Source: Comamonadaceae bacterium (GTDB taxonomy: Bacteria; Pseudomonadota; Gammaproteobacteria; Burkholderiales; Burkholderiaceae_C). Taken from it: 64,000 nucleotides of DNA. The notes beneath the pieces were generated by a model. It worked only from the letters and a program-made list of their open reading frames with translations, had not been told where the DNA came from and searched no databases. The translations under genes were made by a program, and so were the position numbers. Of this stretch, positions 2,006-46,290 are shown piece after piece (position 1 is the stretch's first letter; the number at the start of each line of letters is the position of its first letter). Where the stretch lies: positions 7,802 to 71,801 of the forward strand of contig QZKF01000076.1 in the NCBI GenBank assembly GCA_003599455.1. The letters run 5' to 3'.

Positions 2006-2013
2006 GTGAAACA
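1998..2013. promoter_or_regulatory. parS site 1 (GGTTTCACGTGAAACA)
   Basis: 15/16 match to TGTTTCACGTGAAACA; covers the GTG start of the hydrolase, just downstream of the parA stop. Confidence 0.9.
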
Positions 2014-2021
2014 ACCTCGGC

Positions 2022-2792: not shown

Positions 2793-2801
2793 GGGTTCTT
2801 C

Positions 2802-3416: not shown

Positions 3417-3496
3417 GGAGAACCCCCGGGATGTGGAGGGTCGAGTTTACGTGAAGGGTCCGGGCGGCCGGCGCCGCGCGCGCCGGGCTGTGATGC

Positions 3497-9709: not shown

Positions 9710-9765
9710 GGGGTGGGATTATCCCCAGAAACCCGGAACACCCGCGGAACCGGGCCTGGACAGGC

Positions 9766-12404: not shown

Positions 12405-12414
12405 GGGTGTCTCC

Positions 12415-13884
<1,470 letters not shown>

Positions 13885-13916
13885 GGGGTCGGGTCCGGGG
13901 GTGGTCGAGGAGCGGG

Positions 13917-13965
13917 AATTGGCTCCATGCTACGCCCGAAACCCGGGCCCGCGCCAGTCCACTTT
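13917..13965. promoter_or_regulatory. Candidate MocR operator pair upstream of puuC (AATTGGCTCC ... AGTCCACTTT)
   Basis: Inverted AAKTGG/CCAMWT boxes 48 nt end to end; same layout at 22100-22147 and 27602-27650. Confidence 0.55.
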
Positions 13966-14007
13966 GGGCGGCCGGCAGCGACCCAGTGGGCCGTTGCCGG
14001 GCGGGGC

Positions 14008-14868: not shown

Positions 14869-14876
14869 GGCCGGCC

Positions 14877-15788: not shown

Positions 15789-15805
15789 GGGGTGTCTCCG
15801 GGCGT

Positions 15806-16909
15806 TCAGTCGCGCAGCACCACGCCGGCGATGTCGCTCCACCAGAAGAAGACGTTGTCTTCCCAGGTGATGTCGGACAGGTCCTGGCGCGAGGTGTTGG
15901 CCTCGGTGATCTTCACGCGCAGGCCCTCGGCCGCCTGCACGATGTAGGTGTTGTAGGAGCCGAAGTAGGCGATCTCCTTGACCTTGCCGGTGAACAGGTT
16001 GGGGCCCACACCTTCGGGGCGCTGCTTGCTGATCTCGATCTTCTCGGGCCGCACGGCGATCGTCACCGGCATGTGCAGCGTGCCGCTCACGCCGTGGCCG
16101 ACATGGATCTCGCCGATGGCGGTGGCCGCCGCGCAGCGGTTGGGCTCGTCCACGCTGAGCTTGCCCTCGAACAGGTTGACATTGCCGATGAAGTCGGCCA
16201 CGAAGCGGTTGGCCGGGTGCTCGTAGATCTCTTCGGGGCTGCCCACCTGCAGCACGCGCCCCTTGCTCATGATGGCGATGCGGCTGGCCATGGTCATGGC
16301 CTCCTCCTGGTCGTGCGTCACCATCACCACGGTCACGCCCACCTTCTCGATGATGTTGACCAGCTCGAACTGGGTCTGCTCGCGCAGCTTCTTGTCGAGC
16401 GCGCCCAGGGGCTCGTCGAGCAGCAGCAGCTTGGGCCGCTTGGCCAGGCTGCGCGCCAGCGCCACGCGCTGCTGCTGGCCACCCGAGAGCTGGTGCGGCT
16501 TGCGCTTGGCGTAGGGCGTGAGCTGCACCAGGGCCAGCATCTCGTCGGTGCGCTGCTGGATCTCCGCCTTGGGCAGGCCCTCGCGCTTCAGGCCGAAGGC
16601 CACGTTCTCCCAGATATTGAGGTGGGGGAACAGGGCATAGGACTGGAACATCATGTTGACCGGCCGCTCGTAGGGCGGCATGGCCGCCACGTCCTGCCCG
16701 CCGAGCAGGATGCGCCCCGAGGTCGGCTTCTCGAAGCCGGCGAGCATGCGCAGCAGCGTGGACTTGCCACAGCCCGAGCTGCCCAGCAGGGCAAAGATCT
16801 CGCCCTTGCCGATGGAGAGCGACACCTCGTCCACGGCCACCGCCTCGTCGAAGCGCTTGACCAGTTTCTCGGTGACCAGATAACCCGCCTGGGTGCCCGT
16901 CTCTGCCAT
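15806..16909 (-). CDS. potG: Putrescine ABC transporter ATP-binding protein
   Basis: [36 protein letters not shown]; C-terminal TOBE region. Confidence 0.92.
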
Positions 16910-16946
16910 GTTCAGTCCTTGTTGTGGTTTGCGTGTGCGTGAAGAC

Positions 16947-16986
16947 AAGAAAAAGGGCTGTTCATACGGTGTGTACGAACAGCCCT
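16947..16986 (-). terminator. Intrinsic terminator between potF and potG
   Basis: Minus strand AGGGCTGTTCGTAC-ACACC-GTATGAACAGCCCT followed by TTTTCTT. Confidence 0.8.
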
Positions 16987-17014
16987 GGATCAGGTCTGGT
17001 GAAAACCGGGCGCC

Positions 17015-18193
17015 TTATTTGCCCTTCTTGAAGCTGTTGTAGGCGTTGGCCATGGCTTCGCGCGCTTCGTTGGTGAAGCTGCTCGGCGGGATCATCTTGG
17101 CGAAGTAGTCGGACTCGACAAAGATGGTCTTGTTGCCGGCGATCTCGGGGTTGATCTTGTCCATGGCGGCCTTGTTGCCGGTGGGGTAGCTCATCTCGTT
17201 GGCCATGGCCGCGGCGTTTTCCGGGCGCAGGAAGAAGTCGATGAAGGCATTGGCGTTGTTCGGGTGCTTGGCATCCTTGGTGATGGCCATGGTGTCAAAG
17301 AAGATCAGCGCGCCGGTGCTCGGCAGCAGGGCTTCGATCACGTCCTTGGAACCGTTTTCCTTGGCGCGGCCGGCGGCGATGTTGATGTCGCCCGACCAGC
17401 CCACGGCCACGCAGGCCTTGGCACCGGCGATGTCGTCGATCATGGTGGAACTGAACAGGCGCACGTCCTTGCGCACCTTCTTCAGCATGTCGGTCGCCAG
17501 CTTGTAGTCGGCCGGGTCGTTGGAGTAGGCGTCCTTGCCGATGTAGTGCAGTGCCACCGGGATGATCTCGGTGGGCGAGTCCAGGTAGGCGATGCCGCAG
17601 GACTTCAGCTTGCTCGTGTACTCGGGCTTGAACACCAGGTCCCAGGCGTTCTCGGGCATGGGCGTGCCGCCCAGGGCCTTCTCGACCTTGGTCTTGTTGA
17701 TGCCCACGGTGGTGAAGCCCCAGGCCCACGGCACCAGGTGCTTGTTGTCCGGGTCGGCCTTGGTCAGCGTGGTCAGGATCGCCGGATCCAGGTTCTTCAG
17801 GTTGGGGATCTGGTCCTTCTTCAGCGGCTGCAGCAGGCCGCCTTCGATCTGGCCCTTGGCGAACACGGTGCCGGGCACCACGATGTCGTAACCGGTGTTG
17901 CCCGCCACCAGCTTGGCGTGCAGGGCCTCGTTAGTCTCGAAGGTGTCGTAGTTGACCTTGATGCCGCTTTCCTTCTCGAAGTTGGCGATCATGCCTTCGG
18001 GGATGTAGTCGGGCCAGTTGTAGATGTTCAGGACTTTTTCATCGTCGTACACCGGGCCGGCGGGTGCCGCGGGCGCGGCCGGCGCGGCGGCCACCGGGGC
18101 GGGTGCCGCAGGCGCGGCCACCGGCTCTTCTTTTTTGCCACAGGCGGCCAGCAGGATGGCTGACATCGCGAGAACCAGAACGTGCTTTTTCAT
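17015..18193 (-). CDS. potF: Polyamine ABC transporter substrate-binding lipoprotein
   Basis: Lipobox LLAAC, Ala/Pro linker, LNIYNWPDYI, GYDIVVP, GWSGD. Confidence 0.9.
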   Translation of the reverse strand: MKKHVLVLAMSAILLAACGKKEEPVAAPAAPAPVAAAPAAPAAPAGPVYDDEKVLNIYNWPDYIPEGMIANFEKESGIKVNYDTFETNEALHAKLVAGNTGYDIVVPGTVFAKGQIEGGLLQPLKKDQIPNLKNLDPAILTTLTKADPDNKHLVPWAWGFTTVGINKTKVEKALGGTPMPENAWDLVFKPEYTSKLKSCGIAYLDSPTEIIPVALHYIGKDAYSNDPADYKLATDMLKKVRKDVRLFSSTMIDDIAGAKACVAVGWSGDINIAAGRAKENGSKDVIEALLPSTGALIFFDTMAITKDAKHPNNANAFIDFFLRPENAAAMANEMSYPTGNKAAMDKINPEIAGNKTIFVESDYFAKMIPPSSFTNEAREAMANAYNSFKKGK

Positions 18194-18390
18194 GGTGTTG
18201 CTCACTCCAACGGGGTTAATCGACCAAAAGAACTCAACCGGGTGGGGCTGGAAATTGCCTGAGATCGCTAGCAATTTTCAGACCCGATGCGGGCCCCTGT
18301 GCACCAGAAACGGGCCTGGCGAGGCATTGCGGAAACCATTCTAGGGCCAGTCCCGCCGGGTTTTCCATCCCTGTCGGGGCCGGCATCCGG

Positions 18391-19830
18391 TCAAGCCAGC
18401 TGGCCGGCGGCGCGCAACTCGTCCATGGTCGCGTCCAGGCAGCGGTGGATCAGCGCCATCATCTCGTCGATCTGGGCCCGGGTCATCACCAGCGGCGGCG
18501 CGATGATCATGCGGTCGCCCACGGCGCGCATGATCAGGCCGTTCCTGAAGCAGTGGGCGCGGCATTTCATGCCCACGCCCAGGTCCTCGTCGAACATCTG
18601 CTTCGTGGCCTTGTTCTTCACCAGCACCAGGCCGGCGACGAAACCGCAGGTCTCGGCCATGCCCACCAGCGGGTGGTGGTTGAGCTCCTCGAAACGCTCG
18701 GCCAGGTAGGGGCCGACGTCGTCGCGCACCTTGCCCACCAGGTTCTCGCGCTCCATCAGCTCGATGTTGGCCAGCGCCACCGCGCAGGCCACCGGGTGGC
18801 CGCTGTAGGTGTAGCCGTGGTTGAACTCGCCGCCCTTCTCGATCAGCACCTTCGCCACGCGGTCGCCCACCATCACGCCGCCGAGCGGGATGTAGCCGCT
18901 GGTCACGCCCTTGGCGAAGGTCACCAGGTCGGGCCGGTAGCCGAACTTCTCGTAGGCGAACCAGTGGCCCAGGCGGCCGAAGGCGCAGATCACCTCATCG
19001 GAAATCAGCAGGATGCCGTGCTTGTCGACGATGCGCTGGATCTCGGGCCAGTAGGTCGATGGCGGGATGATCACGCCGCCGGCGCCCTGCACCGGCTCGG
19101 CGATGAAGGCCGCCACCTTGTCGGCGCCGATGGAGAGGATCTTCTCCTCCAGCCAGCGCGCGGCGCGCAGGCCGAAGTCGGCCTCGCTTTCGCCGGGCAG
19201 CGCGTTCTCGAAGAAATAGGGCTGCTGGATGTGCGTGATGTTGGGAATGGGCAGGTCACCCTGGGCGTGCATGCCGCCCATGCCGCCGAGCGAGGCGCCG
19301 GCCATGGTGCTGCCGTGGTACGCGTTGTGGCGGCTGATGATGACCTTGCGCTGCGGCTGGCCCAGCAGGTCCCAGTAGCGGCGCACCATGCGCACGTTGG
19401 TGTCGTTGCTCTCCGAGCCGCTGCTGGAGAAGAACACGTGCTCGAAGCTGCGCCCCCCCACCTTGGGCGCGAGGGCCGCCAGCTTGGTGGCCAGCTGCAC
19501 CGCCGGCACGTTGGTGGTCTGGAAGAAGCTGTTGTAGAACGGCAGCGTCATCATCTGCTGGTAGGCGGCGTCGGCCAGCTCCTTGCGGCCGTAGCCGGCG
19601 TTCACGCACCACAGCCCGCTCATGGCGTCGAGGATCCTGTGGCCCTCGGAATCCCACACGTAGATGTTGTCGGCGCGCGTGATCACGCGCGAGCCGCGCG
19701 TGGCCAGGTCGCCGTGGTCGGTGAACGGGTGCAGGTAGTGCGCGCTGTCCAGCGCCTGGATGGCTTTCGTGTCCTGCTGCTCGGCGCGGCGCACCAGGGC
19801 GGGTGGGGCAATGAGGGTCGAGGTGTTCAT
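18391..19830 (-). CDS. spuC: Class III aminotransferase, putrescine:pyruvate transaminase (SpuC-like)
   Basis: HYLHPFTD, DAMSGLWCVNAGYG, SGSESND, AYHGST, DEVICAFGR, AKGVTSGY. Confidence 0.88.
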   Translation of the reverse strand: MNTSTLIAPPALVRRAEQQDTKAIQALDSAHYLHPFTDHGDLATRGSRVITRADNIYVWDSEGHRILDAMSGLWCVNAGYGRKELADAAYQQMMTLPFYNSFFQTTNVPAVQLATKLAALAPKVGGRSFEHVFFSSSGSESNDTNVRMVRRYWDLLGQPQRKVIISRHNAYHGSTMAGASLGGMGGMHAQGDLPIPNITHIQQPYFFENALPGESEADFGLRAARWLEEKILSIGADKVAAFIAEPVQGAGGVIIPPSTYWPEIQRIVDKHGILLISDEVICAFGRLGHWFAYEKFGYRPDLVTFAKGVTSGYIPLGGVMVGDRVAKVLIEKGGEFNHGYTYSGHPVACAVALANIELMERENLVGKVRDDVGPYLAERFEELNHHPLVGMAETCGFVAGLVLVKNKATKQMFDEDLGVGMKCRAHCFRNGLIMRAVGDRMIIAPPLVMTRAQIDEMMALIHRCLDATMDELRAAGQLA

Positions 19831-19852
19831 GGTCGGTCCTTGGGTCGCGTGG

Positions 19853-21220
19853 TCAGACGTGAAGCAGCAGGTGCTCGCGCTCCCACGGCGAAATCACCTT
19901 CATGAACTCGTCGAACTCGAGCTCCTTGATCTCGGTGTAGATGGTGATGAATTCCTTGCCCAGCACGTCGTGCAGGTCGGTTTCACGGCGCAGCCAGTCC
20001 AGCGCCTCGCCCAGGCTGCGCGGCAGCGAATAGGGCGAGAGGTAGGCGTCGCCCTTCATCTCGGGCTTGGGCTTGATCTTGTTCTTCAGGCCCAGGTAGC
20101 CGCAGGCCAGCGTCATCGCCATCGCCACGTACGGGTTGGCGTCGGCGCCGATCACGCGGTTCTCCACGCGGCGCGCCTCGGGGCTGGAGATCGGCGAGCG
20201 GATGCCCACCGTGCGGTTGTCGTGGCCCCACTCAATGTTGATCGGTGCCGCGGTGTGGCGCGAGAGGCGGCGGTAGCTGTTCACGTACGGCGCCACCAGC
20301 ACCATGGCCGCGGGGATGTAGCGCTGCAGGCCACCGATGTAGTGGTAGAACGATTCGGACGGCGTGCCGTCCTCGTTGCTGAAGATGTTCTTGCCGGTGG
20401 CCTTGCTCAGGATGCTCTGGTGCACGTGCATCGCCGAGCCCGGCTCGCCGGCGATCGGCTTGGCCATGAAGGTGGCGTACATGTCGTGGCGCAGCGCCGA
20501 CTCGCGCACCGTGCGCTTGAAGAAGAACACCTCGTCGGCCAGGCCCAGCGGGTGGGCGTGGAAGAAGTTGATCTCCATCTGCCCGGCGCCGGCCTCGTGG
20601 ATCAGCGTGTCCACGTTGAGCTTCATCTTGTCGCAGTAGTCGTAGATCTCCTCGAACAGCGGGTCGAACTCGTTGACCGCGTCGATGCTGTACGACTGGC
20701 GCGAGGTCTCGGCGCGGCCGCTGCGCCCGATCGGCGGTTTCAGCAGCGTGTTCGGGTCGGTGTTGCGCGCGGTCAGGTAGAACTCCAGCTCGGGTGCGAC
20801 CACCGGGTCCAGGCCCTCGGCGTCGAACAGCTCGCACACGTGGCGCAGCACGCTGCGCGGCGCGAAAGGCACCAGCTTGCCGTCGTGGTCGAAGCAGTCG
20901 TGGATCACCTGCGCCGTGGGGTCGGTGGCCCAGGGCACGATGCGCGCGGTGGTCGGGTCCGGGCGCAGCTGCATGTCGCGGTCGGTCGGTTCGATCACGT
21001 CGTAGTACGGCCCGCTGGCCGGAAACTCCCCCGTCACCCCCATTGCCACGATCGCCTGCGGCAAACGCATGCCGCGGTCCTCGGTGAACTTCTCACGCGG
21101 CAGGATCTTGCCGCGCGCCACCCCGGTCAGGTCGGGCACCAGGCACTCGACCTCGGTCACGCGGTTCTGGTTGAGCCAGTTCTCCAGATCGTTGAAGGTC
21201 ATCTTTTGGGGGGCTGTCAT
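19853..21220 (-). CDS. puuA: gamma-glutamylputrescine synthetase (PuuA/SpuI-like GS homologue)
   Basis: PDLTGVARGK, APELEFYL, HEAGAGQMEIN, KPIAGEPGSAMHVHQS, RVENRVIGADANPY. Confidence 0.88.
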   Translation of the reverse strand: MTAPQKMTFNDLENWLNQNRVTEVECLVPDLTGVARGKILPREKFTEDRGMRLPQAIVAMGVTGEFPASGPYYDVIEPTDRDMQLRPDPTTARIVPWATDPTAQVIHDCFDHDGKLVPFAPRSVLRHVCELFDAEGLDPVVAPELEFYLTARNTDPNTLLKPPIGRSGRAETSRQSYSIDAVNEFDPLFEEIYDYCDKMKLNVDTLIHEAGAGQMEINFFHAHPLGLADEVFFFKRTVRESALRHDMYATFMAKPIAGEPGSAMHVHQSILSKATGKNIFSNEDGTPSESFYHYIGGLQRYIPAAMVLVAPYVNSYRRLSRHTAAPINIEWGHDNRTVGIRSPISSPEARRVENRVIGADANPYVAMAMTLACGYLGLKNKIKPKPEMKGDAYLSPYSLPRSLGEALDWLRRETDLHDVLGKEFITIYTEIKELEFDEFMKVISPWEREHLLLHV

Positions 21221-21271
21221 GTGCCATCTCCGTTGTGGTTGTGTGGGGTGATGTCCGCGTCCTCCAGGGCA

Positions 21272-22063
21272 TCATGCCCGTGCGAGGTCGGCAGCCTGCA
21301 GGCGCAGGTTCATGCGCTGGCGGCAGGCGCGGCCGAAGGCCTCGAAGATCGCGGCGTAGAACGGCGTCTCCCAGCAGCGCCATTCGGGGTGGAACTGCAC
21401 CGCGTAAGCAAAGGTGCGCGCACCGCGCACGCCGAAGGCCTCCACCACGCCGTCGGGCGCGTGTGCCAGCGGCTCCAGCCCCGCGGCCAGGCGGTTGATG
21501 CCCTGGCCGTGCAGCGAATTGACCTGCGCCTCGGGGCCGCCGGCCCATTGTTCGAACACGCTGCCCGGCGCGAAGCGCACGCTGTGGCGCGGCGCGTACT
21601 GCTCGTCGGGCGGCGCGCCCTTGGGCTCGCGGTGGTCCATCAGCCCCGGCACCTCGTGCACGCGCTGGTGCAGGGTGCCGCCCAGGGCGACGTTGATCTC
21701 CTGGAAACCGCGGCAGATGCCCAGCAGCGGCACGCCCTCGTGCACGCAGGCCTTGACCAGCGCCAGCGTGAGCAGGTCGCGCTCGGCGTCCAGCGGCAGG
21801 CTGGGGTCGGCCACGGCCTCGTCGAAATGGGAGGGGTGCACGTTGGAGGGCGAGCCGGTCAGCATCACCCCGTCCACCAGGGCGAGCAGCTCGCTGATCT
21901 GGCCGGTGTCGGCCAGCGGGAACATCACCGGCTGGGCCTCGGCCCCCACCTTGACGGCCCGCGCGTACTTGTCGCCCAGCAGCAGAAAGGGCATCTGGTG
22001 CCCGTGATCGCCCATCAGGCGGTGGTCGGCAGGCAGCCAGACCATGCACGGTGGCTTGTTCAT
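21272..22063 (-). CDS. puuD: gamma-glutamyl-gamma-aminobutyrate hydrolase (peptidase C26)
   Basis: LTGSPSNVHP, LGICRGFQE catalytic Cys, VNSLHGQG, VQFHPEW. Confidence 0.9.
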   Translation of the reverse strand: MNKPPCMVWLPADHRLMGDHGHQMPFLLLGDKYARAVKVGAEAQPVMFPLADTGQISELLALVDGVMLTGSPSNVHPSHFDEAVADPSLPLDAERDLLTLALVKACVHEGVPLLGICRGFQEINVALGGTLHQRVHEVPGLMDHREPKGAPPDEQYAPRHSVRFAPGSVFEQWAGGPEAQVNSLHGQGINRLAAGLEPLAHAPDGVVEAFGVRGARTFAYAVQFHPEWRCWETPFYAAIFEAFGRACRQRMNLRLQAADLARA

Positions 22064-22099
22064 GATGACTCCAGACAATGGCATTCATTGTGGGGGGCC

Positions 22100-22149
22100 A
22101 ATTGGATCAGAATAAGGGCCATTTGGCACCACCTTGTGGTGCCAAATGG
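22100..22149. promoter_or_regulatory. Divergent puuD/MocR control region with a perfect 14-bp inverted repeat
   Basis: CCATTTGGCACCAC-CTT-GTGGTGCCAAATGG at 22119-22149, plus CCAATTGG at 22098-22105. Confidence 0.6.
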
Positions 22150-33105: not shown

Positions 33106-33119
33106 TTGATGTGCGTCAA
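33106..33119. promoter_or_regulatory. FNR-type box TTGAT-GTGC-GTCAA upstream of the hemerythrin gene
   Basis: 9/10 match to TTGAT-N4-ATCAA, centred ~57 nt before the ATG; overlaps the copA stop. Confidence 0.7.
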
Positions 33120-35461
33120 TCCGCGCGCGGTTGGCGGGTCTGCTGCGGCGGCTTCCAGCGCTTGAGCAGGAGCGCGTTGCTCACCACGCTCACCGAACTC
33201 AGCGCCATCGCCGCGCCCGCCACCACCGGGCTGAGGAAGCCCAGCGCGGCCAGTGGAATGCCGGCCACGTTGTAGGCGAAGGCCCAGAACAGGTTCTGCC
33301 GGATCTTGCGCACCGTGCGGCGCGAGATGTCCAGCGCGGCGGCCACCATCATCGGGTCGCCGCGCATGAGCGTGATGCCGGCGGCGTGCATGGCCACGTC
33401 CGAGCTGCCGCCCTGGCTGTGGCTCATGGCCATGCCCACGTCGGCCGCGGCCAGCGCGGGCGCGTCGTTCACGCCGTCGCCCACCATCGCCACCGTGTGC
33501 AGCCGCTCGCCCACCACGGCCGCGCGCAACCGGCGCACCACCGCCGCCTTGTCGCCCGGCAGCACCTCGGCAATCACCTCGTCCTTGTTCGCGCGCAGGC
33601 CCAGGCGCGCGGCCATGGCGAGCGCCGCGCCGCGGTTGTCGCCCGAGACCATGAACAGGCGCATGCCCTGCGCGCGCAGGCCGGCAATGGCCTCGGCGGC
33701 ACCCGCCTTGGGCTCGTCGCCGAAGGCCAGCAGGGCCAGCGGCGCCCAGGTGGCCGCCGCCGCCGCATCGCCCGGCGTCTGGCTCGCCAGCACCGACACT
33801 GTGGCGCCCTGCGCCTGCAGCACCTTGGCGCGCTCTTCCAGCGGGCCCAGCGCCGCACCCAGCTCGTGCATCCAGCGCAGGCTGCCCAGCGCCAGCAGCG
33901 CACCCTTCAGGCGGCCCTGGCTGCCCCGGCCCGACACCGCCTGCACCTCGCGCGCCGCGTCGGGCGCCACCACGATGGAGCGCGACGCGGCGGCCTCCAG
34001 CACGGCGCGCGCCAGCGGGTGCGCGCTCTGGGCCTGCAGCGCGGCGGCCACCTGCAACACCGCGGTTTCGTCCACCCCCGGCACGGCCTCGATCACCAGC
34101 AGGCGCGGGTGGCCTTCGGTGAGCGTGCCGGTCTTGTCGAAGGCCACCGTGTCGACCTTGTGCGCGATCTCCAGCGCCTGCGCGTCCTTGATCAGGATGC
34201 CGTGCTGCGCGGCCACGCCGGTGCCCGCCATGATGGCCGTGGGCGTGGCCAGGCCGAGCGCGCAAGGACAGGCGATCACCAGCACCGCCACCGCGTGCAG
34301 CAAGGCCTCTTCCATCGGCGCGCCGGTCCACAACCAGCCCAGCAGCGTGGCCAGCGCGATCACCAGCACCACCGGCACGAACACCGCGGCCACCTGGTCC
34401 ACCAGGCGCTGCACCGGCGCCTTGCCGGCCTGCGCGTCCTGCACCAGGCCGATGATCTGCGACAGCACGCTCTGCGCGCCGATGGCGCGCACGCGCACGT
34501 CCACCGCACCCTCGCCGTTGAGCGAGCCGCCGGTCACGCCATCGCCCACGTCCTTGGGCACCGGCATGGCCTCGCCCGTCAGCATGGACTCGTCGGCCTG
34601 CGTGTGGCCCTGCACCACCGTGCCATCGGCCGCAAACCGCTCGCCCGGCAGCACGCGCACCACGTCGCCGGGCAGCAGCTCGTCCACCGCGACCTCGGTC
34701 GGCTCGGTGCGGCGCACGCCGTCGGGCAGCAGGTGGGCGCGGTCGGGCCGCAGCGCGTGCAGCGCGCGGATGGCGGTGGTGGTCTGGCGCTTGGCGCGCG
34801 CCTCCAGCCACTTGCCCAACAGCACCAGCGTGATCACCACCGCCGAGGCCTCGTAGTACAGGTGCACCATCTCGCCCGGTTCGGCGCGCCACCAGAGCCA
34901 GGTCGACAGCGCCCAGCCCGCCGTGGTGCCGATGGAAACCAGCAGCTCCATGTTGCCGGTGAAGGCCTTGAGCGCGTGCCAGCCGGCGCGGTAGAAACGC
35001 GCGCCCAGCACGAACTGCACCGGGGTGGCCAGCAGGAACTGGATCCAGGCCGGCAGCATCCAGTGTTTGCCGAACAGGTCGCCCACCATGGGCAGCACCA
35101 GCGGCGCGGACAACAGGGCCCCCACCAGCACCGGCACCAGATCGCGCGGCACGCCCAGCCAGCGTTCGCCGGCCGCCTCGTCCGCGGCTTCCATCGTGCG
35201 CGGCTCGTAGCCCGCGTCGCGCACCGCGCGCTTGATGCGCGCCAGCGATTCGACGCTGTCGTGGGTGGTCAGGGTGACGCGCGCGGATTCGGTGGCCAGG
35301 TTCACCGTGGCGTCGCTCACGCCGGCCTGTTTCTTCAGCGCCTTTTCCACCCGCGTCACGCAGGAAGCGCAGGTCATGCCGCCGATGCCCAGGTCGATCT
35401 GGGTTTGCGGCAGGGTGGAGAAGAGCCCGGCGGACTCGGAGTTGGCGGTGAGCGTGTTCAT
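33116..35461 (-). CDS. copA: Copper-translocating P1B-type ATPase
   Basis: GMTCASC metal-binding domain, [43 protein letters not shown]. Confidence 0.96.
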
Positions 35462-35467
35462 GCGGGC

Positions 35468-35498
35468 AGCATAAGCTTTGCCCCCATGGGAAGGTCAA
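35468..35498 (-). promoter_or_regulatory. MerR-type copA promoter (-35 TTGACC, 19 bp spacer, -10 TATGCT)
   Basis: 19-bp spacer with a CueR-like ACCTTCC half-site; -10 ends 6 nt before the ATG. Confidence 0.75.
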
Positions 35499-35532
35499 GC
35501 ACGCATGTTGCGAACTGTGACGGTGGGCACGC

Positions 35533-35563
35533 TTGACCTTGACACCATGTCAAGGATCACAAT
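35533..35563 (+). promoter_or_regulatory. MerR-type copZ promoter (-35 TTGACC, 19 bp spacer, -10 CACAAT) with dyad CCTTGAC-N5-GTCAAGG
   Basis: 19-bp spacer; perfect 7-bp inverted repeat at 35537-35555. Confidence 0.8.
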
Positions 35564-35600
35564 GCATGCACTGTCTTCCACCACACCGAAGGATCTCTCC

Positions 35601-35798
35601 ATGAACCAGGTTTTCAACGTCCAGGGCATGACCTGCGGCCACTGCGAAAAGGCCGTCACCACCGCCATCAAGCTTCTCGACCCCCAGGCTGAGGTGCGCA
35701 TCGACCGCGGCCAGAACCGCGTCGAGGTCCAGACGACCCAGCCGCGCGAGGCGCTGGCCGAGGCGATCCGCGAAGAGGGTTACCAGGTCGCCGCCTGA
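35601..35798 (+). CDS. copZ: Copper chaperone (HMA domain)
   Basis: VQGMTCGHC..AV, EEGY; 65 aa; AAGGA RBS. Confidence 0.92.
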   Translation: MNQVFNVQGMTCGHCEKAVTTAIKLLDPQAEVRIDRGQNRVEVQTTQPREALAEAIREEGYQVAA

Positions 35799-35800
35799 AC

Positions 35801-36352
35801 ATGCCGGCACGCGACACCCGGCATGCCCCGCCGCCGGCCACGGCGGGTGCCCCCAACGCGACCGACCACCTCACCGCCTGGCCGGTCAGCATCGGCAAGG
35901 CGGCGCAGCTCAGCGGCATCTCGCCCAAGATGCTACGCCACTACGAGGCACTGGGCCTGCTCGCGGCGGTGCCGCGCACCGACAGCAACTACCGCCAGTA
36001 CAGCCTGGCCGACGTGCACACGTTGCGCTTCATCCGGCGCGCGCGCGACATGGGCTTCGGCCTGAACGCCATCACCGAGCTGGTGAGCCTGTGGCACAAC
36101 CGCCGGCGCAGCAGCGCCAGCGTCAAGCGCATCGCGCAGAAACACCGGGACGAACTCGAGCAGCGCATCGAGGCCCTGCAGGCCATGCAGCGCACCCTGG
36201 GCCACCTGCTGCGCCTGTGCCCGGGCGACGGCCGGCCCGACTGCCCCATCCTGGACGACCTGAGCCACCCCGACACGACAAGAAGCGGCACAAAACTTTA
36301 CAAACCGGCCACACCGGGCGAACAGGGCAGAAACACGCGCGGAACACACTGA
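35801..36352 (+). CDS. cueR: Cu(I)-responsive MerR family regulator
   Basis: SIGKAA..SG, RHYE..GL, NYRQY, CPGDGRPDCPIL metal loop. True start uncertain. Confidence 0.9.
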   Translation: MPARDTRHAPPPATAGAPNATDHLTAWPVSIGKAAQLSGISPKMLRHYEALGLLAAVPRTDSNYRQYSLADVHTLRFIRRARDMGFGLNAITELVSLWHNRRRSSASVKRIAQKHRDELEQRIEALQAMQRTLGHLLRLCPGDGRPDCPILDDLSHPDTTRSGTKLYKPATPGEQGRNTRGTH

Positions 36353-36419
36353 ACCCACTCCGCAGCCCGACACCGTGTCGCTGTGGTGAGCCCTTCCTCA
36401 ACACGCCACTGGAGTTCAC

Positions 36420-36998
36420 ATGAAACTGCTTCCGAAACGCGCCCTGCTCGCCGCTGCCCTGGCCACCGCCTTTGTCGGCGTCTCCGCCACCGCCATTGCT
36501 CAAGGCATGGGCCAGACCCCCGCACCTGCCACCACCGCCCAAGCCCAGGCGGCCACCCCACCCACCGCCGAACAGCATGCCCAGAAGCACGCCGAGCGCA
36601 TGGCCCGCATGCAGCAGAAGATGGCCGAACGCCAGGCCGCCCTCAAGGCCGAGCTCAAGCTCACGCCGGCCCAGGAACCGGCCTGGAACGCCTTCATCGC
36701 ACGCACCCAACCCCAGGCCCGCCCGGCACACGCCGGCGGCCGCGAAGACTGGTCCAAGCTGACCACGCCCCAGCGCCTGGACAAGATGCAGGCGCTGAAG
36801 GCCGAACGCGACGCCCGCATGCAGCAACGCCACGACGCCATCAAGAGCTTCTATGCCGCGCTGAATGCCGAACAACAGAAAGTGTTCGACGCCCAGCACG
36901 GCCAGGGCTTCCAGCGCGCCGGCATGCACGGTGGTCACGGTGGCAAGCACCATGGCCAGCACGGTGGCGGCCATCACCGCATGGGCGGCATGATCTGA
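36420..36998 (+). CDS. Spy/CpxP-like (LTXXQ) periplasmic protein with a His/Gly/Met-rich C-terminal tail
   Basis: Signal peptide, LKLTPAQ and LNAEQQKVFD motifs, tail GMHGGHGGKHHGQHGGGHHRMGGMI. Confidence 0.85.
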   Translation: MKLLPKRALLAAALATAFVGVSATAIAQGMGQTPAPATTAQAQAATPPTAEQHAQKHAERMARMQQKMAERQAALKAELKLTPAQEPAWNAFIARTQPQARPAHAGGREDWSKLTTPQRLDKMQALKAERDARMQQRHDAIKSFYAALNAEQQKVFDAQHGQGFQRAGMHGGHGGKHHGQHGGGHHRMGGMI

Positions 36999-37019
36999 CC
37001 GCATTCGCTGGCTCCGGTC

Positions 37020-37245
37020 CCTGCTTCTTGTTCTTATAGATTCTTCTAATTCAAGATAGCAGTAGTAGTAGAGGGCGCTGTCCGGTGTGGACAAGCGCCC
37101 TTTCCCTTTCTGGATCAAGGACTTGGGCTGCGCAGAAGGGTGTGTGAAGTGCGCTGTCGCCGGCCGCGCCCAACGGGGATAAGAATCGGGCTGGCCTCCG
37201 TCCTGTGGACAACCGGTCTCTTGTTCAAAAGTTACACACAGGGTT
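37020..37245. other. Probable chromosomal replication origin (oriC)
   Basis: AT-rich tract ~37024-37056; TAG-CAG-TAG-TAG-TAG at 37057-37071; GC-rich spacer; TGTGGACAA at 37086-37094; IHF-like GATCAAGGACTTG at 37113-37125; further DnaA-box-like 9-mers at 37141, 37174, 37204, 37232. Confidence 0.78.
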
Positions 37246-37405
37246 GTGCCGGAGCCTCGACGGGGCGTGCCGAAACATGCCCTGACACCTGGGCACAGTC
37301 GCTTGCGGATGCGCTGCAACCCGGCTGTTAAGATGCGCCGCTTCACAGCCAGACCTGCCGTTCCGGCGTTCCTGCCGCTGGCCTGTTTTTGGATCCGTTG
37401 CGCCC

Positions 37406-38176
37406 ATGTCTGTTGCCCTCGCAGGAAACGCCCCCACCACCTTTGAAATCAAGAGCGCCCACCTGCCCCTGGTGGCCCTCATGCTCAAGTCGTCCGACCT
37501 GAACCGCCTGGCCGAGGAACTGGCCCAGCGCTTCGGCGACATGCCCGATTTCTTCGACCACGACCCGCTGGTCATCGACCTGCACCCGCTCAACGTGGCC
37601 GAGGCCAACGCCCTGCCCGACTTCGGTGCGCTGCAGACCCTGCTGCGCCAGTACCGCCTCACGCCGCTGGCCGTGCGCGGCGGCACCCTCGAACAGACCG
37701 CGCTGGCCATGGCCGCGGGGCTCACCCCCACGCCCGATGCGACGGTGCAGCGCGCCGCGCCCGCCGTGGTACCCAACGAGATCACCGCCGTGCCCGAACC
37801 CGTGGCACAGCCTGCGTCAACGCCGACCCCCGGTGCGCTGGTGGTCGACAAGCCCCTGCGCTCGGGCCAGCAGGTCTATGCGCGCGGCCGCGACCTGGTC
37901 GTGATGGCCATGGTCAACCCGGGCGCCGAGGTGATCGCCGACGGCCACATCCACGTGTACGCGCCGCTGCGCGGCAAGGCCATCGCCGGTGCGCGCGGCA
38001 ACGCCGACGCGCGCATCTTCGCCCTGGCCATGGCACCCGAACTCATTTCCATCGCCGGCATTTACCGCACCAGCGAGGTCGCTCTGCCCGAGTCGGTCCA
38101 GGGCAAGGCCGCGCAGGTGCGCCTGGTGCCCGGGCCCGATGGCGACAAGCTGGTGATCGACGCCATCGGCGCCTGA
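37406..38176 (+). CDS. minC: Septum site-determining protein MinC
   Basis: FEIKSA, DKPLRSGQQVYA, VNPGAEVIADGHIHVY..LRGKAIAGA. Confidence 0.96.
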   Translation: MSVALAGNAPTTFEIKSAHLPLVALMLKSSDLNRLAEELAQRFGDMPDFFDHDPLVIDLHPLNVAEANALPDFGALQTLLRQYRLTPLAVRGGTLEQTALAMAAGLTPTPDATVQRAAPAVVPNEITAVPEPVAQPASTPTPGALVVDKPLRSGQQVYARGRDLVVMAMVNPGAEVIADGHIHVYAPLRGKAIAGARGNADARIFALAMAPELISIAGIYRTSEVALPESVQGKAAQVRLVPGPDGDKLVIDAIGA

Positions 38177-38214
38177 CCCGACCCCCCCATTTCTCGAACA
38201 CAAGGACTTTCACC

Positions 38215-39030
38215 ATGACCAAAATCGTTGTCGTCACCTCCGGCAAGGGCGGCGTGGGCAAGACCACCACCAGCGCCAGCTTCGCCTCCGGCCTCGCGCT
38301 GCGCGGCCACAAGACCGCCGTGATCGACTTCGACGTCGGCCTGCGCAACCTGGACCTCATCATGGGCTGCGAACGCCGCGTGGTGTACGACCTGATCAAT
38401 GTGATCCAGGGCGAGGCCAACCTGAACCAGGCGCTGATCAAGGACAAGCAGTGCGACAACCTGTTCGTGCTGGCCGCCAGCCAGACGCGCGACAAGGACG
38501 CACTGAGCCAGGAAGGCGTGCACAAGGTGCTGACCGACCTGTCCGCCATGGGCTTCGAGTACATCGTGTGCGACTCGCCCGCCGGCATCGAGACCGGTGC
38601 GCTGATGGCCATGCACTACGCCGACGAAGCGCTGATCGTGACCAACCCCGAGGTCTCCAGCGTGCGCGACTCCGACCGCATCCTGGGCATGCTGGGCAGC
38701 AAGACGCAGCGCGCGATCGACGGCAAGGAACCGATCAAGGAACACCTGCTGATCACGCGCTACAACCCCGGCCGCGTGGCCGAAGGCCAGATGCTGTCGC
38801 TGGAAGACATCCAGGACATCCTGCGCATCAAGCTCATCGGCGTGATCCCGGAGAGCGAAAACGTGCTGACCGCGTCCAACCAGGGCACGCCGGCCATTCA
38901 CCTCAAGGGCACCGACGTGGCCGAGGCCTACAGCGACGTGATCGACCGTTTCCTCGGCGCCGAGAAGCCGCTGCGCTTCATCGAAGCCGAAAAGGCCGGC
39001 TTCTTCAAGCGCCTGTTCGGGGGGAAGTAA
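38215..39030 (+). CDS. minD: Septum site-determining ATPase MinD
   Basis: SGKGGVGKTT, DFDVGLRNLD, DSPAGIE, C-terminal GFFKRLFGG membrane-targeting helix. Confidence 0.98.
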   Translation: MTKIVVVTSGKGGVGKTTTSASFASGLALRGHKTAVIDFDVGLRNLDLIMGCERRVVYDLINVIQGEANLNQALIKDKQCDNLFVLAASQTRDKDALSQEGVHKVLTDLSAMGFEYIVCDSPAGIETGALMAMHYADEALIVTNPEVSSVRDSDRILGMLGSKTQRAIDGKEPIKEHLLITRYNPGRVAEGQMLSLEDIQDILRIKLIGVIPESENVLTASNQGTPAIHLKGTDVAEAYSDVIDRFLGAEKPLRFIEAEKAGFFKRLFGGK

Positions 39031-39033
39031 GGC

Positions 39034-39294
39034 ATGTCGATATTTTCCTTTCTGCTGGGCGAGAAGAAAAAGACCGCCAGTGTCGCCAAGGAGCGCCTGC
39101 AGATCATCCTGGCGCACGAGCGCAGCGGGCGCAACGCGTCCGAGCCCGACTACCTGCCCGCGCTGCAGCGCGAACTGGTGGCCGTGATCAGCAAGTACAT
39201 CAAGATCAACCCGGACGACATCAAGGTCCAGCTCGACCGCCAGGACAACCTGGACGTGCTCGAGGTCAAGATCGAGCTGCCCGACCGCAAGTGA
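39034..39294 (+). CDS. minE: Cell division topological specificity factor MinE
   Basis: [33 protein letters not shown]. Confidence 0.98.
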
Positions 39295-39304
39295 TCAGCT
39301 CCAC

Positions 39305-39333
39305 GCCCTCCGCGAGAGGGTTGGGGTGAGGGC
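39305..39333. repeat. Degenerate REP-like palindromic element
   Basis: GCCCTCCGCGAGAGGGTTGGGGTGAGGGC; resembles the widespread CCCTCACCCCAACCCTCTCCC-type intergenic repeats (recalled). One copy in the window. Confidence 0.4.
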
Positions 39334-39377
39334 CCGCGCGCCAGGGCCTGGTTGCGCCAGCGATCTATGATCGGCCC

Positions 39378-41081
39378 ATGCTGATCGAGACGCTGGGCGC
39401 GGCCCGCGACATGGGCCGACTCAACACCATCCTGGGCGTGCTGATCCGCCACGGCTTTGGCGACAGCGTGCGCCGCCTGGGCCTGGCGGATTCGCTGGAA
39501 CGTGCCGGCCACGCGCTGAACTGGGACAAGGTCGCCGACCTGGCGCGGCTGCAGCCACCGCAGCAGGTGCGGCTGGCGATGGAGGAAATCGGCCCCACCT
39601 GCGTCAAGCTCGGCCAGATCCTGGCCGGCCGCGCCGACCTGTTCGGCCCCGAGTGGATCGCCGAGTTCGAGAAGCTGCACAGCCACGTGCCCGCGGTGCC
39701 GCTGGAGTCCCTGCGCGACCAGTTGCGCGAAGACCTGGGGGGCGAGCCCGAGGCCGTGTTCGCGCGCTTCGACGCCGAGCCGCTGGCGGCGGCGTCCATC
39801 GCGCAGGTGCACCGCGCGCAGCTGCAGGACGGCACCGAGGTGGTGGTGAAGATCCGCCGCCCCGGCATCACCGACACCATCGAGGCCGACCTGCGCCTGC
39901 TGGCCCGCCTGGCCGCGCTGGCCGAGGCCGAACTGCCCTGGCTCAAGCCCTACCGCCCGCAGCAGCTGGTGCGCGAGCTGGCTCGCTCGCTCAAGCGCGA
40001 GCTCGACCTGGCCAGCGAATGCCGCAACGCCGAGCGCATCGCGGCCCACATGGCCGCCCTGCCCTGGATCGTGGTGCCGCGCGTGCACTGGGCCCACACC
40101 AGCGCGCGCGTCAACGTGCAGGACCACGTGAACGGCATTCCCGGCCACGCGCTCGACCGGCTCGACGCCGAAGGCCTGGACCGCCGCCTGCTGGCGCGGC
40201 GCGGTGCGCAGGCGGTGCTCAAGATGATCGTGCAGGACGGCCTGTTCCACGCCGATCCGCACCCGGGCAATGTGTTCTACCTGCCGGACAACCGCATCGC
40301 CTTCATCGACTTCGGCATGGTCGGCCGGCTGTCGCAGCGCCGGCGCGAAGAGCTGCTGGGTCTGCTGCTGGGCCTGGTCGAGCACCAGCCCCAGGCCGTG
40401 GCCGATGTGCTGCTGGACTGGACGGGCGACGACCATGGCGTCAACCTCTCGGTGCTGGAAACCGAGATCGAGGCCTTCGTCGACCAGTACCAGGGCGTGC
40501 CGCTGGCCCAGCTCAGCCTGGGGCAGATGCTGGCCGACGTGACCGCCATCCTGCGCGAACACCACCTGGCGCTGCCCCCGGACCTGGCCCTGCTGATCAA
40601 GGCCTTCATCACGCTCGAGGGCATGGGCCGCGGACTCGACCCCGACTTCCACATGGCGACCGAGGCCCTGCCCCTGCTGCGCCAGGTGGTGCGCGAGCGC
40701 TACCGCCCGCGTGCGATCGGCGTGCGCGCCTGGCAGGGCCTGCGGCGCACGCTCGCGCTGGCCGAACAACTGCCGCACGACCTCTCGCGCCTGCTGCGCA
40801 GCGCGCGGCGCGGCCGGGTGCACGTGGGCATCGAGCTCGCGCACCTGCGGCGCGTGGGCGACCAGATCGACCGCGCGGCCAACCGCCTGGCCATGGCGCT
40901 GGTGATCGCCGCCCTGATCATCGGCGCGTCCATCGTCATGACCGTGCAGGGCGGCCCCACCCTGATGGGCCTGCCGTTGTTCGGCTTCCTCGGCTTCGTG
41001 GGCGCGGTGCTGGGCGGTCTCTGGCTGGTGCGGGCGATCTGGCGCAGCAGCCGCGGCGGTCTCGGGGACGAAGAAAACTGA
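39378..41081 (+). CDS. ABC1/UbiB (AarF) family kinase-like membrane protein
   Basis: GPTCVKLGQ, AAASIAQVH, VVVKI.RP, ELDLASE, HADPHPGN, IDFGMVG; two C-terminal TMs. Confidence 0.92.
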   Translation: MLIETLGAARDMGRLNTILGVLIRHGFGDSVRRLGLADSLERAGHALNWDKVADLARLQPPQQVRLAMEEIGPTCVKLGQILAGRADLFGPEWIAEFEKLHSHVPAVPLESLRDQLREDLGGEPEAVFARFDAEPLAAASIAQVHRAQLQDGTEVVVKIRRPGITDTIEADLRLLARLAALAEAELPWLKPYRPQQLVRELARSLKRELDLASECRNAERIAAHMAALPWIVVPRVHWAHTSARVNVQDHVNGIPGHALDRLDAEGLDRRLLARRGAQAVLKMIVQDGLFHADPHPGNVFYLPDNRIAFIDFGMVGRLSQRRREELLGLLLGLVEHQPQAVADVLLDWTGDDHGVNLSVLETEIEAFVDQYQGVPLAQLSLGQMLADVTAILREHHLALPPDLALLIKAFITLEGMGRGLDPDFHMATEALPLLRQVVRERYRPRAIGVRAWQGLRRTLALAEQLPHDLSRLLRSARRGRVHVGIELAHLRRVGDQIDRAANRLAMALVIAALIIGASIVMTVQGGPTLMGLPLFGFLGFVGAVLGGLWLVRAIWRSSRGGLGDEEN

Positions 41082-41437
41082 CCCGGCACGCGTTTTGCGT
41101 GCCCGTGTTACATTACCGGGTCGCCTTGAGCGACCAGCCGCGCCCCAGCTTCACCGCCGGGACGCACCCGCCCCCGGCAGAGGGGCTGCTGGTCCAGCCC
41201 CTCCAGGGCGCCGCGCCACACCGCTTTCTCACAGCACCGTGGCCCTTTCCCTCCCTGCTGTTGCCGATGCCCCTGCCGTGGCTCGTGCGCCGGACTTGAC
41301 CCGATGCCTCGTGCACCGGGCCGAGGCCGGAAGAACCGGTGGGGCACCCCGGCGCCTGGGGCTGCCACCTGACTGTTTGTTTCGGGCTTTACCGACGCCG
41401 CGGCAACGACCGCGGCCCTGGCCCACTGATGTTTTTG

Positions 41438-41707
41438 ATGATTTACACGACTCCTATTACAACGACCACGAGACTGTCTCCCCTCACCCTGGGCAAGTAC
41501 CGCATTGCGGCTTCCCCGCGCCCCTTGCCGGGCGGCCTGTTTGCCGCGCAGGTGTCCATCGCCAGCGGCCACGGCAGCGCGTCCACCGCCCGTGTGATGC
41601 GGTTCGACAGCGCCTTCCCCACGCACGACGCGGCGGCCGACTACGCCATCGCGCAGGGCATCGACTGGGTGCAGGACACCACCCGCCAGTCGGCCCGCCC
41701 GAACTGA
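41438..41707 (+). CDS. Small hypothetical protein upstream of infA
   Basis: ORF with plausible composition ([26 protein letters not shown]); start uncertain (41429/41438). Confidence 0.55.
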
Positions 41708-41735
41708 CCGATACACTTCAAGCAAAGGAAACACC

Positions 41736-41990
41736 ATGGCCAAAGAAGAACTGATCGACATGATGGGCATCGTCAACGAGGTGCTGCCCGACACGCGCTT
41801 TCGCGTCACGCTGGACAACGGTCACCAACTGATCGCCTATTCCGCCGGCAAGATGAAGAAGAACCACATCCGCATCCTCGCGGGCGACCGCGTGTCGCTG
41901 GAACTCTCGCCGTACGACCTGACCAAGGGCCGCATCAACTTCCGCCACATCGAAGGCCGCGGCCCGATGGTGCCGCGCAAGCCGCGCTGA
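41736..41990 (+). CDS. infA: Translation initiation factor IF-1 (stand-alone paralogue)
   Basis: [51 protein letters not shown]; AAGGA RBS. Confidence 0.96.
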
Positions 41991-45368: not shown

Positions 45369-45463
45369 GGGCATGGACTGTAGCGCGATATCCATGGCCT
45401 CCCGCCCATGACGAAACCCCCGATGCCGCGAGGGCACCAGGGGTGGCCGGATTCCGAGGGGGA

Positions 45464-45730
45464 TCAGTAGACGCCGCGGGTCGTGCTGCCCTGGCCCACA
45501 TGCACCGGGCCACCGGTTCGGGCCTGCATCGGGAAGCGGTGCGGCGCCAGGTCGCGGAAGGTGGCGCCGGTCTGGCCGTCGGCGATCAGCGTGCCGTTGC
45601 GCTGTGCTTCAACGACCTCTGCGCGCACCTGGTCCCGCGTTTTGGGCGAGGCGGTGTCCGCGGCAAAGGCGGCGCCGATGGAGGCGGCGGTGAGGGCGAG
45701 GGCGATCAGGGAGAGGCGAGCGGTGTTCAT
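45464..45730 (-). CDS. DUF4148 family small secreted protein
   Basis: Signal peptide, then KTRDQVRAEVVEAQRNG. Confidence 0.8.
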   Translation of the reverse strand: MNTARLSLIALALTAASIGAAFAADTASPKTRDQVRAEVVEAQRNGTLIADGQTGATFRDLAPHRFPMQARTGGPVHVGQGSTTRGVY

Positions 45731-45835
45731 GTGGGTTTCCTTGGGGTTGGGCCGGCGATGCTGGCGTTGGCTTGCCCACTGAGTACGCGCCCAGGCCGGC
45801 GCTGGATTCAAACCCCACCGCTCCGAAACAATGCA

Positions 45836-46252
45836 TTACACCTTCGGGTACAGCACCATCTGCGTGCAGCGGAACAGCGCGATCGTCTTGCCGGTCTCGC
45901 GGTGCGTGACGACCGCGTCCCACACCTGCGTGGTGCGGCCCAGGTGCGCCGGCGTGGCCACGCAGTCGATCGTGCCCTCCAGGGCGGTGCCCAGGTGGTT
46001 GCTCTTGAGCTCGATGGTGGTGAAACCGGTGGCGCCCTTGGGCAGGCTGGCCATGCAACCATAGCCGCAGCTGGAGTCGGCCAGCGTGACCACCGAGCCG
46101 GCGTGCAGGTAGCCGTTGGGGGCCATGGTGTGTGGCTTCACCGCGAGCTCGGCGCGCACCTCTTGCGGGCTCACCTGCGTGAACACGAGGCCCAGGTGGC
46201 CGGGCAGCGCGCCGGCGCCGCGAGCGTTGAATTGTTGGGCGAGGTCGTTCAT
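45836..46252 (-). CDS. PaaI family hotdog-fold thioesterase
   Basis: NGYLHAGSVVTLADSSCG, TIELKSNHLG, HLGRTTQVWD; AGGAG RBS. Confidence 0.9.
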   Translation of the reverse strand: MNDLAQQFNARGAGALPGHLGLVFTQVSPQEVRAELAVKPHTMAPNGYLHAGSVVTLADSSCGYGCMASLPKGATGFTTIELKSNHLGTALEGTIDCVATPAHLGRTTQVWDAVVTHRETGKTIALFRCTQMVLYPKV

Positions 46253-46290
46253 GCGGGTCTCCTGTGGTGTATCGACGGGGCGGGGGGTGT

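Follow-up and report, generated by a model that had tools for sequence, protein, structure and literature searches.

Where does the chromosome of a Comamonadaceae bacterium begin to replicate when the part of it that looks origin-proximal holds no dnaA? The window considered here, the whole stretch of 64 kb that was analysed (G+C about 69%), lacks dnaA, and near its left end four parS sites, spanning 1998-4699, lie around the genes parB-parA-rsmG-mnmG. These sites (1998-2013, 3570-3585, 4495-4510 and 4684-4699, with one or two mismatches each and two of them inside the mnmG reading frame) were found with the motif TGTTTCACGTGAAACA at no more than two mismatches, for which four occurrences are seen against 0.08 expected. 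The genes themselves, at 0.5-6.5 kb and recognized by Pfam hits to ParB and MnmG, are transcribed away from the element described below, and the sites and genes together mark an origin-proximal domain. An initial annotation had placed oriC in the intergenic region upstream of minCDE, and the distances that it gave are accurate: mnmG is about 31 kb and the parS cluster 32-35 kb from the element. We propose that positions 37025-37249 are probably the chromosomal oriC of a Hydrogenophaga-type betaproteobacterium, uncoupled from dnaA.

Anatomy of the element upstream of minC

To the left of the element lies copA on the minus strand, followed on the plus strand by an HMA gene, the gene of a MerR-type regulator and that of a periplasmic LTXXQ-family protein. 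To the right, minCDE is followed by genes for an ABC1/UbiB-type kinase and an IF-1 paralogue, and then by DAHP synthase and RNase T-type exonuclease genes on the minus strand; no tRNAs were found in the window. The copper-homeostasis set at 33116-36998 (copA, the HMA chaperone-like gene, the MerR/CueR-type regulator and the LTXXQ gene) directly abuts the element, and this adjacency is kept in many Comamonadaceae loci. The IF-1 (infA) paralogue, of 84 residues at 41736-41990, stands outside ribosomal protein clusters, and an identical protein occurs in 1747 collection blocks. The features of the locus are as follows.

36420..36998, plus strand: periplasmic LTXXQ-family gene, left neighbour, transcribed towards the element (Pfam PF07813, E 1e-16)
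37025..37249, plus strand: whole oriC-type element, about 225 bp (nhmmer match to the profile of the relatives' copies, E 2.7e-58, profile positions 2-226)
37026..37056, no strand: AT-rich tract, presumed DNA unwinding element (74% A+T against 31% window-wide)
37057..37071, plus strand: DnaA-trios TAG CAG TAG TAG TAG, read from the sequence (at least three trios within at most 16 bp of a box)
37070..37103, plus strand: hairpin covering spacer and first box, with TTTCCCTTTCT after it (folded RNA, -23.9 kcal/mol, z -4.0)
37072..37085, no strand: G+C-rich spacer of 14 bp between trios and first box (length kept, sequence variable in relatives)
37086..37094, minus strand: R1-like DnaA box TTGTCCACA (TGTGGACAA on the plus strand), one mismatch to the consensus, aligned with E. 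coli R1
37113..37125, plus strand: IHF-like site GATCAAGGACTTG, 12 of 13 positions of WATCAANNNNTTR, 18 nt past the first box
37141..37149, minus strand: TGTGTGAAG, with a TGTG core, possible low-affinity DnaA site, four mismatches, aligned with E. coli R5M TGTGAATGA
37174..37182, minus strand: CGGGGATAA, predicted low-affinity DnaA box, two mismatches, GGGGAYAA kept across copies
37204..37212, minus strand: DnaA box TTGTCCACA (TGTGGACAA on the plus strand), one mismatch; the relatives' consensus is a perfect TGTGGATAA
37232..37240, plus strand: DnaA box TTACACACA in R4-like orientation, two mismatches, aligned with E. coli R4
37244..37248, plus strand: conserved TTGTG, right edge of the element (high-information columns in 106 copies)
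37406..39294, plus strand: minC, minD and minE, right neighbours (Pfam MinC_N/MinC_C, translations, relatives' called genes)

The AT-rich tract, trios, boxes and IHF-like site that had been listed for this region were all recovered at the positions given for them. The most AT-rich 40-mer of the entire window falls in the element, at the AT-rich tract, and the element is also the top-scoring DnaA-box cluster of the window, with five sites at no more than two mismatches in 160 bp. Within one mismatch of TTATCCACA the element holds only the two TGTGGACAA sites at 37086 and 37204, and the sites at 37141, 37174 and 37232 are weak when judged on the window alone; the relatives show that their positions are conserved. 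Over the window, TTATCCACA at no more than one mismatch occurs 7 times against 1.78 expected. Further, two composite patterns, one of the trios with the box and the other of the box followed after 18 nt by ATCAANNNNYTG (box plus IHF-like site), each occur once in the window and in none of 100 shuffles. Chance is excluded as the source of this arrangement of motifs.

The succession of unwinding element, DnaA-trios, box and IHF site had been read as the basal layout for origin unwinding, and both its order and its orientation are indeed canonical. Published searches for basal unwinding systems looked for at least three trios within 16 bp or less of a DnaA box, the commonest spacer being 13 bp (PMC8287927). 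The element has a box with one mismatch, a 14-bp spacer, five trios, an AT-rich tract beyond them and a further cluster of boxes. The inverted repeat that had been pointed out at the first box is likewise present (AGGGCGCT/AGCGCCCT at 37072-79/37094-101), but conservation of the origin does not extend to it.

Conservation and the dnaA-linked copies of relatives

MinC relatives assign the window to Hydrogenophaga (Comamonadaceae), the best loci having 82-91% MinC identity; a look-up of the window's exact MinC sequence returned no record. Conservation upstream of minC, which the initial annotation had named as a check, is clear: the boxes recur with constant spacing in 80 genomic loci around minC, and where the window has degenerate sites, relatives have perfect TGTGGATAA or TTATCCACA. 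The 37232 box, for instance, has a perfect TTATCCACA as its family consensus, 28 bp from the preceding box. A profile built from the alignment of the relatives' copies defines the 225-bp unit; it matches the 64 kb exactly once, at the element, and reaches nhmmer E-values of 1e-58 in close relatives and 1e-27 in the Polaromonas copies. In 106 distinct copies the high-information columns comprise: 1) the trios, whose columns 37063-37071 are among the most conserved of all; 2) the first box, which is near-invariant and has TGTGGACAA as its family consensus too; 3) a TTT; 4) the ATCAA and CTTG of the IHF-like site; 5) the near-invariant TGTG core of the 37141 site; and 6) the motifs GGGGAYAA, TGTGGAYAA, TTAYNCACAG and TTGTG. 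The spacers between these motifs are constant in length and free to vary in sequence, the two main boxes (37086 and 37204) lie 118-120 bp apart in 92 of 97 copies, and the AT-rich tract is AT-rich in all relatives, with a sequence that is only loosely conserved. Such conservation, confined to motifs and their spacing while the spacers vary, is the signature of a protein-binding DNA element.

An RNA was considered at this point and dropped, since Rfam gave no relevant match, either for the element region at a permissive threshold or for the whole window at the gathering threshold, and the pattern of conservation is unlike that of an RNA. More generally, it appears most improbable that the element is a mobile, MITE-like repeat or a small structured RNA in which words resembling DnaA boxes arose by chance. 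The several copies per locus of some relatives, some of them nearly identical (L026a/b), would suit a repeat. However, the conservation is one of short motifs and variable spacers with no covarying stems, terminal inverted repeats or target duplications were not seen, and the copies are limited to the dnaA-minC neighbourhood, with one in the window and no DNA match among 72,556 plasmids, a collection in which no dnaA-bearing Burkholderiales record was found.

The spacer between dnaA and dnaN is the classical position of an origin, and homologous elements occupy it in relatives. In the Comamonadaceae contigs L033 and L034 the element fills this spacer, gyrB follows and minCDE is 4-6 kb away; the same spacer holds it in Polaromonas (L082/L083, loci reached through DnaA) and in the Sphaerotilaceae-like contigs L113, L122, L158, L163 and L152. 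The gene order in Polaromonas is trmE-yidC-rnpA-rpmH, dnaA-element-dnaN-gyrB, an RNase T gene, a DAHP synthase gene, further genes and then minE-minD-minC, and Polaromonas sp. OV174 carries a second, inverted copy upstream of dnaA, the inverted pair flanking dnaA. A metagenome scan with the trio-plus-box pattern recovered the element in other settings, namely beside minC, beside LTXXQ-type genes, often as tandem pairs, and beside the RNase T gene. With respect to minC it stands in both orientations, and it is also found downstream of minCDE-ubiB and beside other genes.

These settings bear on the possibility that the region is ordinary intergenic control DNA, in which a terminator of the LTXXQ gene adjoins a minCDE promoter regulated by DnaA and IHF and the likeness to an origin is coincidental. 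DnaA also acts as a transcription factor, the element is directly upstream of minC in Hydrogenophaga, and a strong hairpin with a T-rich, though interrupted, tail (UUUCCCUUUCU) covers the first box. To judge from its fold and tail, this hairpin is a putative terminator of the LTXXQ gene that overlaps the spacer and the first box and does not belong to the origin core. It is present only in the subclade of the window, where the LTXXQ gene is the direct neighbour, and the median z over the 106 copies is -0.54; it overlies the element without explaining it. Trios and an AT-rich tract at canonical distance are no feature of a promoter, and the orientations and settings just described, dnaA-dnaN spacers included, do not follow minC. 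No sigma-70-like promoter was found in 36300-37600, and the earlier proposal that the minCDE promoter starts at the edge of the element is not supported. On this evidence we consider the control-region explanation quite improbable. A comparison of RNA and DNA contigs over 35500-39500 yielded no usable transcript ends. The sequence GAAACATGCCCTGACACCTG (37272-37291), between the element and minC, is kept in the closest relatives (L001-L013) and not beyond them, and is a candidate for the minCDE promoter or an operator.

The initial annotation had further held that the element is uncoupled from both mnmG and dnaA. This is borne out by the absence of dnaA from the window and by the dnaA loci of the Hydrogenophaga-like lineage, which have no origin-like element. 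Two protein searches for Hydrogenophaga DnaA returned only Polaromonas-like proteins or Sphaerotilaceae-like fragments; the loci were reached via variants of ribosomal protein L34, of which the gene call P0294 led to ten dnaA loci (L215-L224) with 64-66% G+C, one of them on a 4.48-Mb contig. None of the ten has a match to the element profile, even unfiltered. Their dnaA-dnaN spacer is 183 nt long, G+C-rich and without boxes, and their rpmH-dnaA spacer of 234 nt has just two boxes, as expected for autoregulation of dnaA. These loci are tied indirectly to the organism of the window, through the same study and sample series, through the sequence upstream of rpmH in the isolate run X7 and through locus spacing. 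Over the stretch at 35.5-38.3 kb, which includes minC, X7 and the window share 97% identity; the distance from rpmH to dnaA is 734 nt in X7 and 733 nt in L215-L224. The 30 nt upstream of rpmH in X7 translate to the N-terminal extension of the L34 call P0321 and are also close to that of P0294. Between its dnaA and dnaN no more than about 196 nt are unaligned, and the element would not fit into that space. Additionally, the MinD and MinE of the window are identical in contigs of the same study series. One of these contigs, of 658,681 bp and 98% identical to the window, carries the element at about 548,176 and shares its sample of origin with one of the dnaA loci. Thus, X7, the ten loci and the same-series contigs indicate that minC, and not dnaA, is where the closest available relatives have an origin-type element.

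The Comamonadaceae dnaA loci without the element (L204-L213 and L215-L224) all have a facing pair of boxes upstream of dnaA, TGTGGAYAA and, at 40-41 nt, TTATCCACA, which is presumably the autoregulatory operator. The location of minC at 49.5% of the chromosome of Hydrogenophaga sp. ANAO-22 (NZ_CP159956.1, minC near 2,897,944) was considered as a clue to the origin and rejected, since a complete Polaromonas genome has dnaA at 45%; such complete-genome records are hence not rotated to dnaA.

Copy number and replication polarity

The architecture of the element itself is standard. The less ordinary finding concerns the family as a whole, in which a conserved cassette is present in one to three copies and shifts its position in the dnaA-minC neighbourhood: its observed places are the spacers rpmH-dnaA and dnaA-dnaN, the vicinity of the RNase T gene, and sites downstream of ubiB or upstream of minC. 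Many relatives have two or three full-length copies in either orientation, and in several of them two or three copies lie within 10 kb. Tandem copies 0.3-0.6 kb apart occur in the Hydrogenophaga loci L019, L021 and L026 and in L029, and copies 2-4.5 kb apart in L020, L036, L038 (Ottowia thiooxydans), L048, L051 and L080; L083 has two, at 9528-9747 and 11441-11655, and L152 has two within its dnaA-dnaN spacer. The pairs differ in age, L019a/b being old, with diverged spacers, and L026a/b recent and nearly identical. With two or three copies in relatives, the presence of the element is by itself no proof that a given copy fires.

Compared with Polaromonas, the window has the same gene neighbourhood in flipped orientation, and gyrB-dnaN-dnaA is absent beyond the RNase T gene (about 45.4 kb). 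At this break in synteny (window 45438-46290; L083 12879-16127) a DUF4148 gene and a MATE transporter gene stand instead of gyrB-dnaN-dnaA, and a local minimum of the cumulative GC skew (about 44 kb) is close by. In L233, L234 and L236 (at about 9350-10000; Hydrogenophaga-like contigs of chromosome size, 5.2-6.0 Mb) the order infA-patatin-DAHP synthase-RNase T is kept and unrelated genes occupy the slot of the window's ubiB and minCDE (compared with window 41082-41735). A second recurrent breakpoint lies here, in the slot occupied by the second element copy in L036.

A GC-skew switch had been named as an expectation for an origin at this locus. Neither GC skew nor GGGNAGGG switches polarity at 37.1 kb within the window, 64 kb being too short to settle the matter. 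Over such a length, we estimate that marker frequency would change by about 2%. Cumulative G-C declines between 22 kb and about 44 kb, climbs as far as 50 kb and drifts downwards after that, with the 27 kb to the right of the element forming a short sample for skew, and the GC skew at four-fold sites in the genes right of the element fits a minus strand that is leading throughout better than a switch. In every lineage minC and minD have an excess of C on their coding strand (about -0.15), irrespective of whether the element precedes them, follows them or is more than 10 kb distant; these genes themselves therefore account for much of the signal immediately right of the element. Across relatives a small, consistent rise of GC skew marks the element in 41 loci out of 45 (mean +0.042), against 48 of 70 displaced control points (+0.018), a comparison that is weak in that the loci are phylogenetically related. 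The word GGGNAGGG occurs 16 times on the minus strand of the window and 3 times on the plus strand, with a minus bias both left (7:1) and right (9:2) of the element. As a marker of replichores it was tried and rejected, as it does not flip and three Polaromonas hits are on the wrong strand relative to the dnaA-linked element; within this family it is unproven as a polarity marker. Its plus-strand count of 3 is far below the approximately 17 that we estimate from base composition. Gene orientation had also been cited for an origin here. The genes just right of the element do point right, as claimed, but so do the three genes immediately to its left, and beyond 43 kb most genes are leftward again; this argument is weak.

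The lack of a switch at 37.1 kb in skew and in GGGNAGGG, together with the two or three coexisting copies of relatives, would be compatible with a genuine oriC-type element that is only a secondary or former origin, or a DnaA-binding locus like datA or DARS, with initiation at a copy outside the window. The local skew minimum at 44-45 kb, which may be noise or the trace of an earlier origin position, points the same way in that it coincides with the slot where Polaromonas has gyrB-dnaN-oriC-dnaA beside the RNase T gene. Yet strong purifying selection across the genus acts on the AT-rich tract, the trios and the distance from trios to box, which a locus serving only for DnaA titration or regulation would not need. 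Further, the Hydrogenophaga-like dnaA loci are free of the element, there is no other copy in the 64 kb, and in the closest relatives (L001-L013 and L225-L232) loci of 20 kb showed no second copy either. Initiation from some other copy is accordingly, in our estimate, unlikely. The identification of the element as oriC, which the initial annotation had put forward, is supported by the homologous elements in dnaA-dnaN spacers, by the basal unwinding pattern, by colinearity with the E. coli origin and by its being the sole copy in the window, and we hold it to be the likely one.

A wider proposition, that a 225-bp Burkholderiales origin duplicates and moves inside a neighbourhood of about 15 kb, is tentative and, when all of its parts are taken jointly, doubtful. 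If it were true, some living lineages would have two or three full copies, all of which might be active at once, and the Hydrogenophaga origin would have moved from the dnaA-dnaN spacer to minC, with dnaA-dnaN-gyrB later carried far off. The unflipped skew between 37 and 45 kb would then be a remnant of the older origin position.

Known origins and the predicted course of initiation

In E. coli, too, oriC is known to lie apart from dnaA, and both the E. coli origin and the element described here are in the neighbourhood of mnmG. When aligned with the annotated E. coli oriC, the profile is colinear with it, R1, the IHF site, R5M, R3 and R4 following each other in this order. The gap from the R1-type box to the IHF-type site is 18 nt in both, the distal R4-type box has the opposite orientation, with TTAYNCACA at the far end, and the size is similar (about 225 bp here and 232-245 bp in E. 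coli), with the same order and orientation of elements; the similarity of the E. coli sequence to the profile is marginal (9.5 bits). The two differ in that: 1) 37020-37250 contains one GATC and the E. coli origin eleven; 2) clear TAG trios are present here in place of the E. coli 13-mers; 3) the first box is TTGTCCACA in all of the element family; and 4) the flanks are LTXXQ and minC here and mnmG and mioC in E. coli. The single GATC implies no control of the Dam/SeqA type for the element, and few GATC are expected outside the Dam-containing Gammaproteobacteria.

The box, the 14-bp spacer, the five trios of the preferred 3'-GAT-5' type and the AT-rich tract resemble the incC region and basal unwinding system of B. 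subtilis, and the copies of Polaromonas and others lie, like incC, in the dnaA-dnaN spacer. The element of the window differs from incC in having a single proximal box and not a tandem pair, in its IHF-like site and in not being beside dnaA. With datA- and DARS-type loci it has boxes and an IHF-like site in common, whereas the conserved trios and AT-rich tract are not needed by such loci.

A comparable case within the order is chromosome 1 of C. metallidurans CH34, where the transition in GC skew falls about 90 kb away from dnaA and next to a stretch of 213 nt that contains three perfect DnaA boxes (PMC2864759). There too the origin was placed away from dnaA, in that case with evidence from skew, which the element of the window does not have; the comparison is by description only. 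Dual origins have been reported in P. aeruginosa and predicted in Halomonadaceae, with lineage-specific loss, and the two origins were judged not to be duplicates of each other (bioRxiv 10.1101/2025.08.05.668638). Some of the relatives studied here similarly have more than one oriC-type element per chromosome, also with lineage-specific loss, but theirs are clear paralogues separated by 0.3-4.5 kb, and the window has one copy. Our search of the literature returned no description of origins in Comamonadaceae or Hydrogenophaga; complete-genome copies of the locus may already be in automated origin databases.

By analogy with E. coli and B. subtilis, DnaA would bind the high-affinity box at 37086 (the equivalent of R1) and the boxes at 37204 and 37232, IHF would bend the DNA at 37113, and the lower-affinity sites between the main boxes would fill cooperatively. 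A DnaA-ATP filament could then grow from the R1-like box over the 14-bp spacer onto the TAG trios and open the AT-rich tract at 37026-37056, allowing the helicase to be loaded. The element would give a likely replication start for Hydrogenophaga and its relatives, useful for orienting genomes, for growth rates from metagenome coverage and for replicating vectors, and it adds a clear case of separation between oriC and dnaA. The ancestral dnaA-dnaN position and the multi-copy intermediates of close relatives could make the movement of an origin directly testable.

A further feature of the window is the block at 11100-22100, which has a G+C content of 0.64 against 0.70 and a GC skew that is the reverse of that in the flanking DNA. 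Its genes form a polyamine-utilisation-like set, with a gamma-glutamyl ligase (Gln-synt_C), a peptidase C26, a pair of class-III aminotransferases, an aldehyde dehydrogenase and an ABC transporter, and the block may have been acquired or inverted.
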